From the NCBI GenBank assembly GCA_964016885.1, contig OZ024743.1, forward strand, positions 127,410,001-127,474,000: a stretch of DNA of 64,000 bases. Reading direction: 5' to 3'. Numbering within the stretch: the stretch's first letter is position 1; each line of letters opens with the position of its first letter. Shown one piece after another: positions 5,720-64,000 of this stretch. Below the pieces are notes generated by a model. The model saw only the letters and a program-made list of their open reading frames with translations, searched no databases and was not told the origin of the DNA. This DNA is from Eledone cirrhosa (taxonomy: Eukaryota). A program made the translations under genes and the position numbers.

Positions 5720-8700
5720 CCCACACACCACAACAGCCACCACCACACCACAACAGCCACCACCACAGCACTACAGTTACCACAACAGCCACCACAACAG
5801 CACTACAGTTACCACAACAGCACTACAGTTACCACAACAGCACTACAGTTACCACAACAGCACTACAGTTACCACAACAGCCACCACCACAGCACTACAG
5901 TTACCACAACAGCCACCACCACACCACAACAGCCACCACCAGACCACTACTGTCACCACCACCACACCACTACTGTCACCACCACCACACCACTACTGTC
6001 ACCACCACACCACAACAGCCACCACCACACCACTACTGTCAGCACCACCACACCACTACTGTCACCACCACACCACTACTGTCACCACCACCACACCACT
6101 ACTGTCACCACCACCACACCACTACTGTCACCACCACACCACTACTGTCACCACCACCACACCACTACTGTCACCACCACCACACCACTACTGTCACCAC
6201 CACACCACTACTGTCACCACCACCACACCACTACTGTCACCACCACCACACCACTACTGTCACCACCACACCACTACTGTCACCACCACCACACCACTAC
6301 TGTCACCACCACACCACTACTGTCACCACCACCACACCACTACTGTCACCACCACCACACCACTACTGTCACCACCACCACACCACTACTGTCACCACCA
6401 CCACACCACTACTGTCACCACCACACCACTACTGTCACCACCACCACACCACTACTGTCACCACCACCACACCACTACTGTCACCACCACCACACCACTA
6501 CTGTCACCACCACCACACCACTACTGTCACCACCACACCACTACTGTCACCACCACACCACTACTGTCACCACCACCACACCACTACTGTCACCACCACA
6601 CCACTACTGTCACCACCACACCACTACTGTCACCACCACACCACTACTGTCACCACCACCACACCACTACTGTCACCACCACACCACTACTGTCACCACC
6701 ACACCACTACTGTCACCACCACACCACTACTGTCACCACCACACCACTACTGTCACCACCACCACACCACTACTGTTACCACCACCACACCACTACTGTC
6801 ACCACCACACCACTACTGTCACCACCACCACACCACTACTGTCACCACCACACCACTACTGTCACCACCACCACACCACTACTGTCACCACCACACCACT
6901 ACTGTCACCACCACCACACCACTACTGTCACCACCACACCACTACTGTCACCACCACCACACCACTACTGTCACCACCACCACACCACTACTGTCACCAC
7001 CACCACACCACTACTGTCACCACCACACCACTACTGTCACCACCACCACACCACTAATGTCACCACCACACCACTACTGTCACCACCACACCACTACTGT
7101 CACCACCACCACACCACTACTGTCACCACCACACCACTACTGTCACCACCACCACACCACTACTGTCACCACCACACCACTACTGTCACCACCACCACAC
7201 CACTACTGTCACCACCACCACACCACTACTGTCACCACCACACCACTACTGTCACCACCACCACACCACTACTGTCACCACCACACCACTACTGTCACCA
7301 CCACCACACCACTACTGTCACCACCACCACACCACTACTGTCACCACCACCACACCACTACTGTCACCACCACACCACTACTGTCACCACCACACCACTA
7401 CTGTCACCACCACACCACTACTGTCACCACCACCACACCACTACTGTCACCACCACACCACTACTGTCACCACCACACCACTACTGTCACCACCACCACC
7501 ACACCACTACTGTCACCACCACACCACTACTGTCACCACCACACCACTACTGTCACCACCACACCACTACTGTCACCACCACACCACTACTGTCACCACC
7601 ACCACACAACTACTGTCACAACCACACCACTACTGTCACCACCACACCACTACTGTCACCACCACACCACTACTGTCACCACCACCACACCACTACTGTC
7701 ACCACCACCACACCACTACTGTCACCACCACCGCACCACTACTGTCACCACCCCACCACTACTGTCACCACCACCACACCACTACTGTCACCACCACACC
7801 ACTACTGTCACCACCACCACACCACTACTGTCACCACCACCACACCACTACTGTCACCACCACCACACCACTACTGTCACCACCACACCACTACTGTCAC
7901 CACCACACCACTACTGTCACCACCACCACACCACTACTGTCACCACCACCACACCACTACTGTCACCACCACCGCACCACTACTGTCACCACCCCACCAC
8001 TACTGTCACCACCACCACACCACTACTGTCACCACCACCACACCACTACTGTCACCACCACCACACCACTACTGTCACCACCACCACACCACTACTGTCA
8101 CCACCACACCACTACTGTCACGACCACACTACTACTGTCACCACCACACCACTACTGTCACCACCACCACACCACTACTGTCACCACCACCACACCACTA
8201 CTGTCACCACCACCACACCACTACTGTCACCACCACACCACTACTGTCACCACCACACCACTACTGTCACCACCACACCACTACTGTCACCACCACCACA
8301 CCACTACTGTCACCACCACCGCACCACTACTGTCACCACCACACCACTACTGTCACCACCACACCACTACTGTCACCACCACCACACCACTACTGTCACC
8401 ACCACCGCACCACTACTGTCACCACCCCACCACTACTGTCACCACCACCACACCACTACTGTCACCACCACCACACCACTACTGTCACCACCACCACACC
8501 ACTACTGTCACCACCACCACACCACTACTGTCACCACCACACCACTACTGTCACCACCACACCACTACTGTCACCAACACACCACTACTGTCACCACCAC
8601 CACACCACTACTGTCACCACCACACCACTACTGTCACCACCACCACACCACTACTGTCACCACCACCACACCACTACTGTCACCACCACCACACCACTAC

Positions 8701-11700
8701 TGTCACCACCACCACACCACTACTGTCACCACCACCACACCACTACTGTCACCACCACACCACTACTGTCACCACCACACCACTACTGTCACCACCACAC
8801 CACTACTGTCACCACCACCACACCACTACTGTCACCACCACACCACTACTGTCACCACCACCACACCACTACTGTCACCACCACCACACCACTACTGTCA
8901 CCACCACCACACCACTACTGTCACCACCACACCACTACTGTCACCACCACCACACCACTACTGTCACCACCACCACACCACTACTGTCACCACCACCACA
9001 CCACTACTGTCACCACCACACCACTACTGTCACCACCACCACACCACTACTGTCACCACCACCACACCACTACTGTCACCACCACCACACCACTACTGTC
9101 ACCACCACCACACCACTACTGTCACCACCACCACACCACTACTGTCACCACCACCACACCACTACTGTCACCACCACACCACTACTGTCACCACCACCAC
9201 ACCACTACTGTCACCACCACCACACCACTACTGTCACCACCACACCACTACTGTCACCACCACACCACTACTGTCACCACCACACCACTACTGTCACCAC
9301 CACCACACCACTACTGTCACCACCACACCACTACTGTCACCACCACCACACCACTACTGTCACCACCACACACACTACTGTCACCACCACACCACTACTG
9401 TCACCACCACCACACCACTACTGTCACCACCACACCACTACTGTCACCACCACCACACCACTACTGTCACCACCACACCACTACTGTCACCTCCACCACA
9501 CCACTACTGTCACCACCACACCACTACTGTCACCACCACCACACCACTACTGTCTCCACCACCACACCACTACTGTCACCACCACCACACCACTACTGTC
9601 ACCACCACCACACCACTACTGTCACCACCACACCACTACTGTCACCACCACCACACCACTACTGTCACCACCACCACACCACTACTGTCACCACCACACC
9701 ACTACTGTCACCACCACACCACTACTGTCACCACCACACCACTACTGTCACCACCACCACACCACTACTGTCACCACCACCACACCACTACTGTCACCAC
9801 CACACCACTACTGTCACCACCACACCACTACTGTCACCACCACACCACTACTGTCACCACCACCACACCACTACTGTCACCACCACACCACTACTGTCAC
9901 CACCACCACACCACTACTGTCACCACCACCACACCACTACTGTCACCACCACCACACCACTACTGTCACCACCACCACACCACTACTGTCACCACCACCA
10001 CACCACTACTGTCACCACCACCACACCACTACTGTCACCACCACACCACTACTGTCACCACCACACCACTACTGTCACCACCACCACACCACTACTGTCA
10101 CCACCACACCACTACTGTCACCTCCACCACACCACTACTGTCACCACCACCACACCACTACTGTCACCACCACCACACCACTACTGTCACCACCACCACA
10201 CCACTACTGTCACCACCACACCACTACTGTCACCACCACCACACCACTACTGTCACCACCACCACACCACTACTGTCACCACCACACCACTACTGTCACC
10301 ACCACCCCACTACTGTCACCACCACCACACCACTACTGTCACCACCACCACACCACTACTGTCACCACCACCACACCACTACTGTCACCACCCCACCACT
10401 ACTGTCACCACCACCACACCACTACTGTCACCACCACCACACCACTACTGTCACCACCACACCACTACTGTCACCACCACCCCACTACTGTCACCACCAC
10501 CACACCACTACTGTCACCACCACCACACCACTACTGTCACCACCACACCACTACTGTCACCACCACCACACCACTACTGTCACCACCACACCACTACTGT
10601 CACCTCCACCACACCACTACTGTCACCACCACCACACCACTACTGTCACCACCACCACACCACTACTGTCACCACCACCACACCACTACTGTCACCACCA
10701 CCACACCACTACTGTCACCACCACACCACTACTGTCACCACCACCCCACTACTGTCACCACCACAACACCACTACTGTCACCACCACCCCACCACTACTG
10801 TCACCACCACCACACCACTACTGTCACCACCACCCCACCACTACTGTCACCACCACACCACTACTGTCACCACCACCACACCACTACTGTCACCACCACA
10901 CCACTACTGTCACCACCACCACACCACTACTGTCACCACCCCACCACTACTGTCACCACCACCACACCACTACTGTCACCACCACCACACCACTACTGTC
11001 ACCACCACCACACCACTACTGTCACCACCACCACACCACTACTGTCACCACCACCCCACCACTACTGTCACCACCACACCACTACTGTCACCACCACACC
11101 ACTACTGTCACCACCACCACACCACTACTGTCACCACCACCACACCACTACTGTCACCACCACCACACCACTGCTGTCACCACCACCACACCACTACTGT
11201 CACCACCACACCACTACTGTCACCACCACCACACCACTACTGTCACCACCACCACACCACTACTGTCACCACCACCACACCACTACTGTCACCACCACAC
11301 CACTACTGTCACCACCACCACACCACTACTGTCACCACCACACCACTACTGTCACCACCACCCCACCACTACTGTCACCACCACACCACTACTGTCACCA
11401 CCACCACACCACTACTGTCACCACCACCCCACCACTACTGTCACCACTACACCTCTACTGTCACCACCACCACACCACTACTGTCACCTCCACACCACTA
11501 CTGTCACCACCACACCACTACTGTCACCACCACCACACCACTACTGTCACCACCACCACACCACTACTGTCACCACCACACCACTACTGTCACCACCACA
11601 CCACTACTGTCACCACCACACCACTACTGTCACCACCACCACACCACTACTGTCACCACCACCACACCACTACTGTCACCACCACACCACTACTGTCACC

Positions 11701-12140
11701 ACCACACCACTACTGTCACCACCACACCACTACTGTCACCACCACCACACCACTACTGTCACCACCACACCACTACTGTCACCACCACACCACTACTGTC
11801 ACCACCACACCACTACTGTCACCTCCACACCACTACTGTCACCACCACACCACTACTGTCACCACCACCACACCACTACTGTCACCACCACACCACTACT
11901 GTCACCACCACACCACTACTGTCACCACCACCACACCACTACTGTCACCACCACACCACTACTGTCACCACCACACCACTACTGCCACCACCACACCACT
12001 ACTGTCACCACCACCACACCACTACTGTCACCTCCACCACACCACTACTGTCACCACCACCACTGTCACCTCCACCACACCACTACTGTCACCACCACAC
12101 CACTACTGTCACCACCACACCACTACTGCCACCACCACTT
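5720..12140. repeat. 6.4-kb minisatellite of interspersed 20-bp (ACCACTACTGTCACCACCAC) and 23-bp (+CAC) units
   Basis: Read directly. A diverged 20-mer (CACAACAGCACTACAGTTAC) at 5760-5930 grades into the main array. Confidence 0.97.
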
Positions 12141-27268: not shown

Positions 27269-27434
27269 AAGGCCTACCGTGAATGGTTATGTGCCGTATA
27301 TATACCTTTCTATGTTGATGGTTTTCTTGTGAAGCCATGCAATGCCTTCTGTTCCAAAGTGGAGGAATCTTGTCCATTTTTTCGTCCGGCTGTAAAAGAA
27401 ACTCATGCAGGAGATCCAAGTTTTATATGCAAAG
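27269..27434 (+). CDS. FAM155: Internal coding exon of a FAM155/NALF-family gene (NALCN auxiliary factor; NLF-1/Mid1-like cysteine-rich domain)
   Basis: Pyrimidine tract plus cag acceptor and G|gtaaga donor; 166 nt, phase 0 to phase 1. Peptide KAYREWLCAVYIPF...KPCNAFCSKVEESCPFFRP...AGDPSFICK matches the FAM155 pattern YKxWLC...PCxxxCxxVxxxCPFxxP...GxxSFxC. Family recognised from memory, not by search. Confidence 0.8.
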
Positions 27435-38944: not shown

Positions 38945-40550
38945 GTTTATTGAAGAATACAAAAAAACATACATATGAATAAGTAAGGTTTTATAACCAG
39001 GTTGAAATTGACCAATGTTAAGAATGGAAAGGGGCAGTATAAATCCTTAAGGTTGGTGGTAGTAGATGAATAAATAGGCCATCAGTAGATAAGGTATCAA
39101 ATGTCTTTTAAGAAAAGAAATGAAAGTTGCTAGTGTAAATGAATATAGACATATTGTATATAAAAGTGTTGATGGTGAAAGAAGATTACGGTTGGAGGAA
39201 AAGGGGTACTGAGATTAGTGTGTTACATCAAGTAGAATGGAATAGAACAATCTTAAAAAGTTAGTTATTTCTTTGTTGTGAGGAATAATTTGTTCTAAAA
39301 ATATATAATATAAAAATATATATACACATGTACACTCACACATGTTTATATATAGGCATACATGTATGCATATACATACATATACACACACAGATATACA
39401 TATTCACACACACACCTATAATCACACATTTATTCACCTATATCATTTTCTATATTTGTTTAGTTGTATTTATAATATTTGAATGTCCTTCTAATTTTAT
39501 GGTTACATACTAAAATTAATTCTTGTCTTTTATTTAATAGAATGTCCTTCGATTTAGTAATTTCAAAAATTTCTTGGGAACATAGTCCGCACTCCCTTCT
39601 ATTGCCCTGATACGAAATAGCTCTCTTAAGAATCCTCCAAGTTAGGTTATATTTAATATTCTTCTTTTTACAATTATTAACTCCTTCTGCTAAAGAAGTG
39701 CTATTTGTTAATTTTGTGTTTCAGAAACTGTGGGTGTGTGCATAAAATCTCGATTTAAATGGATTAGAAGTGGGTCCTATATAGGATTGATTAGAGTCTT
39801 TAGTGGTGATTACACATTTATATACTATATTATTAATTAAGCAATTTCCATTTAAGGGGCAATTATCTTTTATTCTACAATTACAACTGTTTGCATATAG
39901 GGTTTCAGATGTCCTATCCATATTCTCAATAATAGTGCTAGTATTTGTGTTTACCTTTTTATTTGGGAGAGAAGGGTTTACGGTAGGGTGGTTGTAATCC
40001 GAATTGTTGCTAGTTGGTGAAATTATACTTGATATAGCGTTTATGGAATCATGGTTGTTTTGGACGCTATTAGTTAGATTGGGTATGTAAAACTTAGTCC
40101 CTATTAAGGATGAGGAAGATGGTAATTGGTTGTAGTCTGTTATATTGTGCTGGTGAGGTGAGTGAGCGGATCTATCAGGTGGGTATGCAGTAATATTCTG
40201 GTTACGCGTTGTAGTATTATCATAGTTATCTTGTGTGTGGTGTGCTATTGTGTGTGGTATAGATGGCGCCTTTTTACATTTATAGATGTTATATGCACTT
40301 ATTTTTGTTGTATATTGCTCGAGGTGGAGTAAGAAAATTTTACTGTATTTCTGTTTAGGATTTGATGGTATTTGTGGTTAGGTGGGAAAGACATTTGATA
40401 CCTTATCCACTGATGGCCTATTTATTCATCTACTACCACCAACCTTAAGGATTTATACTACCCCTTTCCATTCTTAACATTGGTCAATTTCAACCTGGTT
40501 ATAAAACCTTACTTATTCATATGTATGTTTTTTTGTATTCTTCAATAAAC

Positions 40551-59100: not shown

Positions 59101-60842
59101 GTCTCAAAACAACACTATTCACAAGAACATCCCACTACTAAAACAAAACCCAAGAATGAAAAAAGCCCTTGAAACACACAAAATAATCAAAAGTAAAAGA
59201 CAACCAAAATCACTGAAAACATTGCACACCAATGCCAAATTACCTACCACAAACCCACAACCAAGTATCAAAAAATGTGGTCGCTCTAATTGTGGAACCT
59301 GCACTCACCTCATTGAACGCAACACGTATACATTTAAATCAGGACAAAATTTTACTGTAAAAAATCACTTCACTTGCTCATCAAAAAATCTAATTTATGC
59401 CATTAAATGTAAAGGATGCAATGAAGATTATATAGGACAAACTAAACTCACACTCAGAAACAGAATGACAGTTCATCGCCAACAATTACGAGATCCAACC
59501 ACGAGACAGATACCACTAAGTGCTTATCTAGACATTTGCGCAAGTAATAAGACACCCAAATTCCAAGTCTTCCCATTTTACCTTTGCGCTAACAATATAA
59601 CAGAACAAATACGAATAAATAAGGAAAATATGTTTATTTTGTGTGTTTCAAGGGCTTTTTTCATTCTTGGGTTTTGTTTTAGTAGTGGGATGTTCTTGTG
59701 AATAGTGTTGTAAGCTTCCGCATTTCTTGGGTTGTGTGTTGAGATATATGATAGAATATTGGACGTGCCTTGAATTTGTTTCTGTTTCCGTAATTCATCA
59801 ATACGAATAAATAAGGAAAATATGTTTATTCAAAAATATAGACCAGCATTAAATATGGTTTAATATACATTATGTCAACACCATAATATGACATACACAC
59901 ACACACATAACACCTTCTACTTTAGAAAATAAAAACCCGAACTAAATAAACCTTAACATACGTTTGCACTGACAATACAACAGAACAAATACGAATAAGT
60001 AAGGAAAATATGTTCATTCAAAAATATTCCTACTAAAGGAATCATTTTCCTACACACACACACACACACACACACACAATATATATATATATATATTCTC
60101 TTCATCTTAACATGCTAACCATACTCCCACACACATAACACCCATACACACACATAACAACCCCCACACCGACAATTCCCTCCCCCATTTCTACTAATAG
60201 AACCACTTTCCTACACACATATATACACACACACAAAATATATATTCTCTCCATCTTAACATACTCGCACACACACACATAACACCCATATACACACACA
60301 CAACTCCCTCCCCCATTTCTACTAATAGAATCATCTTCCAATACACACACACACACAAGCACACAAATAAACATACATATCTTTACTTCAATAGAAAATC
60401 TGAACTCTGACACCCCAGCGAACTAACCATATTCACTGAACCAGAACAATTCTCCCAATCCCATTTCTCTTGACCACTATCTTTCCCTTGTCATAACATT
60501 CTCTATAAAGGCTACAGAATAGTTTTCCAAATAAGGGTGCAAAAATGTAATGAAAACTTGTTCACGTGACAGCCAAATTTCATTTATAACCAATCAAATC
60601 ACGTTTATTAAAAAAAAGCCTTCGTGAGCCACCTTTTTTTTAAGTAAAGAAATTCAAACACACACACACACAACACACACACACGCACACATACAAGCAC
60701 ACAAATAAACATACATATCTTTACTGTCTTTATTAAATAGAAAATCTGAATTCTGACACCCCAGCGAACTAACAATATTCACTGAACCAGAACTATTCTC
60801 CCATCCCTTTCTCTTGACCATTATCTTTCACTTATCATAGAG

Positions 60843-61017
60843 GGTAGAGTATCGGTAGAGGGTCGGACGCCTTGCTTTCCAGCATAGTTACGTCCCTTTA
60901 CGATCTGAGTTCAAATCCCGCCGAGGTTGACTTTGCCTTTCATCCTTACGGGGTCGATAAAATAAAGTACCAGTAATGCACTGGGTAATTGCTGGCCTTG
61001 TGCCTAAAGTAGAAACA
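60843..61017 (+). mobile_element. SINE family A copy with 20-bp TSD
   Basis: attatctttcacttatcata at 60820-60839 and 61018-61037. Confidence 0.88.
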
Positions 61018-61298
61018 ATTATCTTTCACTTATCATAAAATTCTTTTTTCAAGTAAAAAGAAATTCAAACACTCATATATGAAAAAACAACCTGTGACAA
61101 CCCCCCCCCCCCCCCCCCCTCTTATTTGAAGAATTATTGTAACGCGAACTGGCGCGAAATCTATTATAATTATTGACAAACCAATCAAATTACTTCTCGA
61201 AAAACCTGGCATTTCGAGCCACTTTTTCCATATAAAACAAGTAACATTCAGAGACCAACCAGATGTGAGAAAAACCACAGACCCTCCATCTCAACTCA

Positions 61299-61336
61299 CC
61301 TTTTGAAAAGCAGAAGAACTGCGAAACCGGTAAAGG
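61299..61336 (+). ncRNA. Degenerate minimal type I hammerhead
   Basis: ccuu-uUGAAaA-gcag-aagaa-cugc-GAAAC-cg-GUA-aagg. Two core substitutions relative to CUGAAGA; palindromic stem III ACCGGU. Confidence 0.55.
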
Positions 61337-61467
61337 AACCAAATAAATATATATATTTTTAAAAAAAATAAGACTCCAGTTGCATTTTCGATTTCATCTC
61401 TTTTTCTTTATACTTTCACTCGTGTAGGACACCTCGGTTATTTTTCAATTTGTAAAAATAACCTCAC

Positions 61468-61972
<505 letters not shown>

Positions 61973-62502
61973 TATATATATATAAAACGAAGGAAGTGTG
62001 GTAAGGAACCAGATGGACCATAACGCACCAGAGTACTCAATACTTAGGATAGTAGTGTGGGTAATAGGAAAATGTGTTACTCCGACGGGGAGGTCACAGA
62101 TTGGTGTGACGGAAGAGCTTTGATGGAAGAATAAAGATAAAGTGAAAGTTATATGGTGCATGTGTTCAATTGTTGAAATGACAATCCCCAAATATAACAA
62201 TATCGTTTTCAACACCCGATTTCAAATCAAGATCCTTGCTGAACAAATATATATATATATATATATATATAACATTGTTTTAAATTTATCATAGCTATGA
62301 TTGGCTTTCTATTTGGGACAGACACCATGGCTTGAGGTGCACTATCCCATTCTTTTCTTTGTTTTCTTTCTTCCTTCTGTTTGTGCTGTGTTTTGTCACA
62401 CACTCTTACCAGCAGAGGGATTTGTTTTTCTGTTGCACGATCCAGCTTGTCAGAGCTAGTGAAAATATATGCTATTTTCAAAAATATACACTTGCTCTGA
62501 CA

Positions 62503-62583
62503 GTTTGGCAGGTGAACAGTGAGCTGTACTGATGAAGGGTGTTACCCAGAAACATTAGTGTCTGCAGTTCTGTTCGCATGCCA
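62503..62583 (+). ncRNA. Type I hammerhead ribozyme, copy 1
   Basis: uggcag-gugaacag-ug-agcugua-CUGAUGA-a-gggu-guu-accc-a-GAAAC-auuagu-GUC-ugcaguu-cuguucgc-a-ugcca. Confidence 0.85.
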
Positions 62584-62939
62584 ACACAAGAGCAAGAATG
62601 AAGTGTTCATTCTACTGACATGGCTATAAAATTGAGGCTTGTTTGCATACTTGCAAACGAATCGAATATTATTATTAATATTCGCAAAACTCATTACATT
62701 TATTGTAATCAGCCATGTAGAGCGAAATTTTCTTTTTTATTTGAATTTGGTAAAGCCGGCCATCTATCACTCATATACAGGAAACTCACTGGCCAGTTTG
62801 CTGATATGCAAATGTGGCTGATCAGTGGATCTGCTAATATGCAGATCTGACTGATCAGCCAGTCTGCTAATATGCAAATCAGGCTGATCAGTCACTGTGT
62901 ATTTTTGAAAATAGCATATATTTTCACTAGCTCTGACAG

Positions 62940-63019
62940 TTTGGCAGGTGAACAGTGAGCTGTACTGATGAAGGGTGATATCCAGAAACATTAGTGTCTG
63001 CAGTTCTGTTCGCATGCCA
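62940..63019 (+). ncRNA. Type I hammerhead ribozyme, copy 2
   Basis: Same fold; stem II is gggu-gau-aucc, with a G-U pair retained. Confidence 0.85.
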
Positions 63020-63239
63020 ACACAAGAGCAAGAATGAAGTGTTCATTCTACTGACATGGCTATAAAATTGAGGCTTGTTTGCATAATTGCAAACTAATCG
63101 AATGTTATTATTAATATTCTTGACTTTGCCTTTCATCCTTACGGAGTCGATAAAATAAAGTACCAGTAATGAACTGGGTAATTGCTGGCCTTGTGCCTAA
63201 AGTAGAAACAATTATTAATATTCAAAAAACTCAGATTAC

Positions 63240-63276
<37 letters not shown>

Positions 63277-63278
63277 GT

Positions 63279-63400
63279 GAAGGCGTGTGGCTGAGTGGTT
63301 AGAGAATTGGATTCACAATCTTGAGGTTGTGAGCTCGATTCCTGGAGCAGGCGATGCGTTATGTCCTTGAGCAAGACACTTTATTTCACGTTGCCCCTTC
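63279..63400 (+). mobile_element. tRNA-derived CORE-like SINE head (family B relative)
   Basis: ggcgtgtggctgagtggttagag A box, gagctcgattcc B box, then tgtccttgagcaagacacttta. Confidence 0.75.
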
Positions 63401-63904
63401 TACCTGGAGTTGCGACCGATAGTACTAGCAACTGGAATGACCAACGGAAACATTGTTTCCTCAGTCCGATTTGACGAAAGTCGATCGATCAAAAAATATA
63501 TGTATATATATAAATGAAAAAAAATTAAAAAAAATTTTTATTTTATTTTCACAAGAGCAAGAATGAGGGGCTCATTCTACTGACATGGCTTTAAAAATGA
63601 GGCTTGTTTGCATAATTGCAAACGAATCGAATGTTATTATTAATATTCGCAAAACTCATTACATTTATTGTATTTAGCCATGTAGAGCAAAATTTTTTTT
63701 TTTTTTTAATGTGGCAAAGCCGGCCATTGATCGCTCGTTTGCAAGAAACTGACTGGCCAGTCTGCTGATATGCAAATTTGGCTGATCAATGGATCTGCTA
63801 ATATATAGATCTGACTGATCAGCCAGTCTGCTAATATGCAAATCAGGCTGATCAGTCACTGTATATTTTAGAAAATATCATATATTTTCTCTAGCTCTGA
63901 CAGT

Positions 63905-63983
63905 TTGGCAAGTGAACAGTGAGCTGTACTGATGAAGGGTAATACCCAGAAACATTAGTATCTGCAGTTCTGTTTACATGCCA
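63905..63983 (+). ncRNA. Type I hammerhead ribozyme, copy 3 (AUC cleavage triplet, weakened stem III)
   Basis: Stem II gggu-aau-accc. Distal stem I gugaacag/cuguuuac still pairs. Confidence 0.75.
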
Positions 63984-64000
63984 ACACAAGAGCAAGAATG

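Follow-up and report, generated by a model that had tools for sequence, protein, structure and literature searches.

Animal non-LTR retrozymes are described as non-coding units of a few hundred bases, with a GC content below 45%, one type I hammerhead each, thousands of copies and a highly self-paired structure, and for some mussel circles the predicted structure likewise blocks the ribozyme (PMC7229834; for this and the other papers cited we draw on the available parts of the text). Their mobilisation by Penelope-like elements has been proposed, insertion anatomy not being given in the available text (PMC7229834), while insertions of Penelope-like elements themselves are described as partial tandems in which one copy is inverted and truncated at its 5' side and a tail of 30-40 bp is present at only one end (bioRxiv 2021.04.23.441226). 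A recent study of vertebrate retrozymes, whose sample as described in the available text includes no mollusc, places 44% of Xenopus copies in introns (bioRxiv 10.64898/2026.07.22.740005), and our search, confined to the literature, found no paper on cephalopod retrozymes. Here we analyse a stretch of 64,000 nucleotides of the Eledone cirrhosa genome (the window) that carries a repeat with all of the features listed for the animal non-LTR retrozymes. Judged by its sequence, this 436-nt repeat is a real new family of an already known kind. We consider it probable that it is a non-coding dispersed retroelement, an animal non-LTR retrozyme in which every 436-nt unit bears a single type I hammerhead motif. 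Its likely template is RNA that had probably undergone processing at this hammerhead, and a Penelope-like reverse transcriptase-endonuclease is the likely agent of its insertion into (TA)n tracts.

Reading the window sequence with a hammerhead descriptor gave the order CUGAUGA-A-GGGU-loop-ACCC-A-GAAAC-AUUAG-U-GUC, with CUGAUGA boxes starting at 62529, 62965 and 63929 and a fourth core beyond the window end; the first two boxes belong to consecutive head-to-tail cores (Table 1). Stem II has 4 bp with an A on either flank, and stem III has 3 bp, its strand ACAUUAGUGU being wholly self-complementary with G-U pairs. Stem I consists of 7 bp, a UG bulge, 8 bp and then 6 further pairs, matching the long stem I with a bulge about 7 bp from the core described in an earlier, sequence-only reading of this DNA. 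That reading had also placed cores at 62521, 62957 and 63921; the 436-nt spacing stands, but these positions fall on the stem I strand and precede the boxes by 8 nt, whereas the predicted cut sites C62562 and C62998 were placed correctly. Monomer positions are given below as q1-q436, corresponding to 62490-62925, with the predicted cut after q73. The hammerhead regions fold with z = -4.0 to -5.4, none of 200 shuffles being equally stable, compared to z = -1.7 for the minus strand. The window gave four descriptor matches, namely copies 1 and 2, one weak match and, at 61303, the hammerhead of a Penelope element, against a total of 1 match for 10 shuffled windows; copy 3 was rejected. Copies 1 and 2 carry a GUC site and copy 3 has AUC, which had been taken as its cleavage site; however, G63960A leaves C15.2 opposite A and breaks the C15.2-G16.2 pair of stem III, so the AUC is a lesion, and hammerhead 3 is likely inactive. 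The predicted monomer has 38% GC, ATG-led ORFs of at most 82 aa and a longest stop-free stretch of 91 codons, and as a circle it folds at -148 kcal/mol (z -9.5 versus 60 shuffles). The proposal of a type I hammerhead in a non-coding unit of the non-LTR retrozyme kind is thus borne out by a short unit, its low GC and a core in each unit. The Infernal-type check suggested with it turned out otherwise: the Rfam hammerhead models, which miss this core, matched nothing in the window at gathering score or at E<=10.

Table 1. Features of the locus and its surroundings, in window coordinates.
Feature	Position	Strand	Description
FAM155/NALF-like exon	27269..27433	+	tblastn of homologous protein P0002
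5'-truncated autonomous Penelope-like element	59108..61409	+	separate from the repeat; GIY-YIG end, pLTR, own hammerhead at 61303
Insertion alpha, inverted head-to-head arm	62447..62492	-	monomer q407-q13; outer side cut short
Insertion alpha, direct arm	62494..63242	+	1.5 units (q5-q436, q1-q211); ends at the family's short 3' end
Hammerhead 1	62505..62584	+	core 62529-62562; predicted cut after C62562; core equals family majority
Predicted 436-nt monomer between two predicted cut sites	62563..62998	+	
Internal 33-bp sub-repeats with two ATGCAAAT words	62799..62894	+	also at 63756-63855
Hammerhead 2	62941..63020	+	core 62965-62998; one G-U in stem II (C62981T); predicted cut after C62998
Later insertion of a very high-copy repeat into alpha	63120..63210	+	13-bp duplication 63107-63119 / 63211-63223
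(TA)n target of insertion alpha	63242..63276		
Insertion beta	63550..64000, on to 64889	+	other subfamily; begins at q96
Hammerhead 3	63905..63984	+	core 63929-63962; G63960A
FAM155/NALF-like next (last) exon	93140-93487, past window end		tblastn of P0002

The repeats had been read as a tandem array, a description that did not survive closer analysis: TRF called no 436-nt array in the window, and the locus instead comprises a 1.5-mer (alpha) and a separate insertion of another subfamily (beta), which in the neighbouring DNA examined continues to coordinate 64889 and includes the fourth core. The third core lies 964 nt beyond the second, inside beta, and copies 1 and 2 differ from each other by 3.2%, compared to 6.5-12.4% between either of them and the beta pieces. 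The 625-nt junction of beta (q218, spacer, q96) had no full-length counterpart at any other site among the 40 candidates scored out of 1,419. A mobile chimeric circle as the origin of this junction is unsupported, local duplication being as likely. On the best explanation, two old insertions, both from a dispersed family, are present in the window and now decay neutrally within an intron. The high-copy repeat that later entered alpha, which we take to be SINE-like, has a second copy at 60927. The ATT-rich palindrome at q174-199 (window 63100-63119) is a place where later insertions of about 90-190 nt concentrate in many loci. Elsewhere in the window, positions 5913-12138 are occupied by a 6.2-kb tandem array of 23/43-bp repeats with extreme strand skew.

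The family is large. A DNA search for the unit returned 2,824 candidates spread over many contigs, the best at 91-95% identity, and the exact core pattern with stem II left free matched 2,279 times genome-wide (1,359 with stem II fixed; reversed controls 0), so that no fewer than 2,279 cores belong to the family; a 20-mer lying outside the ribozyme gave 1,180 exact genome-wide matches (reversed control 0). We analysed 159 loci, namely 29 best full-unit matches, 67 found via the core, 62 via the outside 20-mer and the window locus, after removal of 10 overlapping or duplicate loci and L001; a single contig supplied all pattern-chosen loci. Per locus, the longest run had a median of 360 nt and exceeded one unit in 54 loci and two units in only 1, leaving rolling-circle copying unsupported for this family, and two same-strand cores occurred in only 14 of the 129 pattern-chosen loci. 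Insertions of exactly one unit numbered 9 against 4.0 expected (P 0.02), a post hoc and weak signal. Copies diverge from the majority by about 3.4-5.4%, and the family is a dispersed, ageing retroelement rather than a satellite, present in many copies in a genome that also has autonomous Penelope elements with 775-aa RT-GIY-YIG ORFs. Subfamily alleles agree within loci in 743/864 direct and 1007/1171 inverted comparisons (86%), versus 62% between loci, and rare alleles are five times as frequently shared by copies of one locus as by unrelated copies, most differences being private (L054 and L100 were removed before the shared-allele count). This sharing implies that both arms were copied from one template, or from similar ones, close to the majority and decayed afterwards. 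On the sense strand, A>G slightly exceeded T>C (ratio 1.22, p 0.018), but the ratio of G>A to C>T was itself 1.15, and the 104 shared rare alleles included 19 A>G and 5 T>C; the A>G bias is a weak sign of an RNA stage or template editing. Three unlabelled sequencing runs from one sample (X1-X3) behaved like genomic DNA contigs.

To gauge conservation of the motif we aligned 86 copies chosen without regard to the core (alignment A1, from which 8 of 94 hammerhead pieces were dropped for their large gaps), in which 93% of cells pair, compared to 27-44% for slid controls. The earlier claim that differences between copies keep pairing cannot be carried by three copies, which are no covariation test, and in the 86-copy alignment covariation was no better than in shuffles (57/500). 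Pairing is preserved in each of the four common variants of stem I (U-A/U-G, G-C/G-U/A-U, G-U/A-U and U-G/C-G). Subfamily-variable columns numbered 0/23 in the core versus 25/310 elsewhere (P 0.16), and genome-wide the 12 core bases were kept in 1,360/1,791 matches (76%), compared to 1,359/2,279 (60%) for the 11 stem II bases. After correction for sequence context, change in the core was 0.79 of expectation (P 0.07-0.12) and that in stem II 1.4. The excess of mutations in stem II (q47-59), about 1.4 times the context prediction and mostly pair-breaking, would fit either a hypermutable hairpin or a loss of activity favoured in copies.

The A/A at the base of stem II, already pointed out in the window, proved to be family-wide (86/94), and can be read either as a substitute for the usual 10.1-11.1 pair or as one extra base flanking that pair on both sides. 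Our literature search found no report of this core form or of its activity; Lunse et al. 2017, who reportedly treat Penelope hammerhead variants, may describe such a core. Natural hammerheads with a U-U mismatch at this position have been reported (PMC3088659), and Penelope hammerheads often carry an extra base between 9 and 10.1 (PMC4209133). If the A/A variant cuts, hammerhead search models miss thousands of sites in the Eledone cirrhosa genome. In the predicted fold of monomer, circle and dimer, the CUGAUG box pairs with CAUUAG of stem III, tertiary contacts lying outside the model. With energies that likewise omit such contacts, this blocked fold lies 6.5-6.9 kcal/mol below the active monomer, and the double hammerhead gains 11 kcal/mol over two monomers yet stays 13 above the dimer minimum; the double hammerhead is, in this folding model, the better active form. 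A self-blocking fold of the predicted kind would explain how such circles escape re-cutting.

The ends of the copies bear on how they entered the genome. Their 3' ends are fixed, falling in two clusters at q214-218 and q242-253, the long end exceeding the short by about 37 nt, whereas their 5' ends vary. Head-to-head arms were observed in 95 of the 159 loci and tail-to-tail arms in 3. Among the head-to-head loci, 43 had an unclassified outer end, and 49 of the 52 classifiable at both ends had one short and one long outer end. (TA)n follows 99/116 short ends (85%) and 66/80 long ends (83%), compared to 91/626 control positions (15%). Inverted 5'-truncated copies, a one-sided tail and (TA)n targets match the described insertions of Penelope-like elements, which implies that Penelope-type enzymes likely wrote the 436-nt copies into DNA. 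The Penelope link proposed in the sequence-only reading thereby gains genomic evidence from 159 loci.

For the distribution of 5' ends, each run was treated as one reverse-transcription path, anchor runs having been removed before truncation counts. In q72-95, an interval of 24 nt at the predicted cut, 35 ends were found against 14.2 expected (2.5-fold, P 2e-6), the upper edge of this interval having been set after the data were seen; a fixed 25-nt bin at q66-90, one of 23, held 34 events at a ratio of 2.5, and a scan correcting for window choice gave p 0.004. Beyond the cut, 5' ends return to baseline (q71-40, 15 vs 12.6). Run-off from cut RNA likely explains the excess, as read from these truncations, although a comparable pattern would be expected if reverse transcription stalled in stem I. 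Such stalling belongs to an alternative that we regard as unlikely, in which a Penelope-mobilised element with a slow or dead relic hammerhead spreads through uncut read-through transcripts and the 5'-end excess reflects stalling in the long stem I. Such a relic would fit the A/A core with its predicted blocked fold, the lack of significant core conservation and the breadth of the 5'-end peak (q79-85, with only 6 events vs 1.9 at q72-75), as well as the failure of 8 of 9 predicted Xenopus retrozymes to cut when assayed in vitro (bioRxiv 2026.07.22.740005). However, the full core is kept in all subfamilies while stem I changes keep pairing, core bases are retained better than those of stem II, and the excess stops at the predicted cut; moreover, q300-400, which folds more strongly (-51 vs -34 to -43 kcal/mol), has no excess of ends (39 vs 44.7, ratio 0.87).

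Since 63 of 98 runs pass through the predicted cut site, most templates were continuous there, whether as a circle, an uncut multimer or a template jump. Under the retrozyme reading, transcripts with two cores would be cut after GUC, probably as a double hammerhead via the palindromic stem III, and a Penelope-like enzyme would prime at both ends of a DNA break near q214/q251 and copy toward the predicted cut. On cut linear RNA the enzyme would fall off near q74, whereas on a joined circle or uncut multimer it would run through to give 1.5-2 units. A stronger version, which we offer tentatively and regard as somewhat doubtful, is that the copies are a germ-line fossil record of self-cleavage, about a third of the reverse-transcription runs (35/98) ending at the cut 5' end of the RNA and the rest traversing the re-joined circle, and that the A/A core and a three-state stem III form a hammerhead variant blocked as monomer or circle and on only as a dimer.

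A candidate type of mobiliser lies next to the repeat. The neighbouring Penelope copy, which also ends in (TA)n, belongs to a family with two ORFs (a 409-aa ORF1 and a 775-aa RT-GIY-YIG), copies more than 96% identical and 22,442 candidates. Its pLTR hammerhead (61293-61345), found in 4/4 full-length loci examined, has U3-A8 covariation, G10.1-C11.1, a palindromic CCGG stem III and a GUA site. No sequence shared with the 436-nt unit was detected in this young family (one family assembled; best E 1.5), and no pLTR homology to the unit in 6 loci with Penelope pieces. Being younger and without sequence in common with the unit, the neighbouring family serves as a model for the mobiliser rather than as the identified mobiliser. 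The local remnant itself has two large deletions relative to full-length copies and an internal inversion, seen as an 81-nt inverted repeat (59109-59189 / 59631-59711, 99% complementary).

It might be argued that some autonomous Penelope-like element has the 436-nt unit as its pseudo-LTR, the copies being the 5'-truncated ends of that element with no separate non-coding element involved. The insertion anatomy would be the same, Penelope pLTRs have type I hammerheads with a palindromic stem III and often the extra base 9/10.1 (PMC4209133), and Penelope ORF pieces lie head-to-head near the repeat at two loci (L044, L063). Against this, runs pass q1 into q436 of another unit, for up to 905 nt without coding sequence, and Penelope protein matches occur in only 6 of the 159 loci, where they belong to various families, differ in orientation and in no case run on from the 5' side of the unit; the unit holds no RT plus GIY-YIG ORF. 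We therefore think this alternative very unlikely and retain a non-coding element. ORF fragments of two other Penelope families were seen head-to-head beside retrozyme arms (L223 949-1860 and L224 572-2503, with gaps of 11 and about 100 nt), possibly as mixed two-arm insertions. Other hammerhead-like motifs at unrelated loci (L225:2789, L225:3811, L228:3302, L114) probably represent further Penelope families, and an ORF at 39721-40377 on the minus strand looks by eye like another GIY-YIG element end, with no Pfam match.

The homologous protein P0002, which matches FAM155A chains (E 1e-7), aligned by tblastn at 91% and 89% identity to two exons 65.7 kb apart. These exons bracket the repeat, placing the insertions sense-strand in the last intron of a FAM155-like gene and upholding the orientation given in the sequence-only reading. 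With its two intact cores the pre-mRNA might conceivably release a circle, but the predicted fold is blocked. That the host keeps an intronic ribozyme pair that cuts the FAM155 pre-mRNA or yields a functional 436-nt circle seems to us exceedingly improbable. The sense orientation within the last intron and the intact cores 1 and 2 would suit such a role, but the window copies are 3.5% off the majority, as other copies are, an intact core is found in any case in 58 of 94 unbiased copies, a later insertion splits copy 2, and copy 3 has a broken stem III pair. The locus looks like neutral intronic cargo.

The newt satellite 2 has an snRNA-type promoter. Such a promoter is not supported in the 436-nt family, ATGCAAAT not being enriched in the window (6 vs 4.6); the octamer was absent from three U2 upstream regions, and an 11-nt match to their -60 region had P 0.2. 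The U2 regions themselves (L229, L231, L232) share the conserved block TCAGTGG-TGTAGAATAG, located 62-40 nt before the U2 genes, which may represent a proximal sequence element. With the newt satellite 2 and double-hammerhead ribozymes the 436-nt family shares a type I core, a weak palindromic stem III suiting dimer cleavage and an internally looped long stem I, but it forms dispersed short insertions, unlike the newt arrays (PMC6155905).

Endonuclease-bearing Penelope-like elements resemble the family in their partial tandems, 5' truncation, inverted 5' copy, one-sided 30-40-bp tail, microsatellite targets and palindromic stem III (bioRxiv 2021.04.23.441226; PMC4209133), and differ in that the 436-nt unit has no ORF and a stem I (21 bp plus) much longer than that of minimal Penelope hammerheads (PMC4209133). 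Among animal non-LTR retrozymes the Mytilus repeats of 350-390 bp are nearest (Cervera and de la Pena 2020, PMC7229834), and the family departs from these retrozymes, as described in the available text, in its 436-nt length, the A/A at the stem II base and mostly fewer than 2 units per locus. Vertebrate non-LTR retrozymes are likewise dispersed as monomers and dimers with a proposed non-autonomous use of Penelope enzymes (Li, Clavereau and Pollet 2026, bioRxiv 10.64898/2026.07.22.740005); there the link was drawn from co-occurrence and pLTR homology, whereas here, with no homologous pLTR found, it is drawn from insertion ends. In the compared literature, as available, the route of animal retrozymes back into DNA is proposed, not demonstrated (PMC7229834; bioRxiv 2026.07.22.740005). 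To this the 436-nt family adds countable genomic marks of Penelope-type insertion, together with a 5'-end excess at the predicted cut and a variant, predicted self-blocking core.
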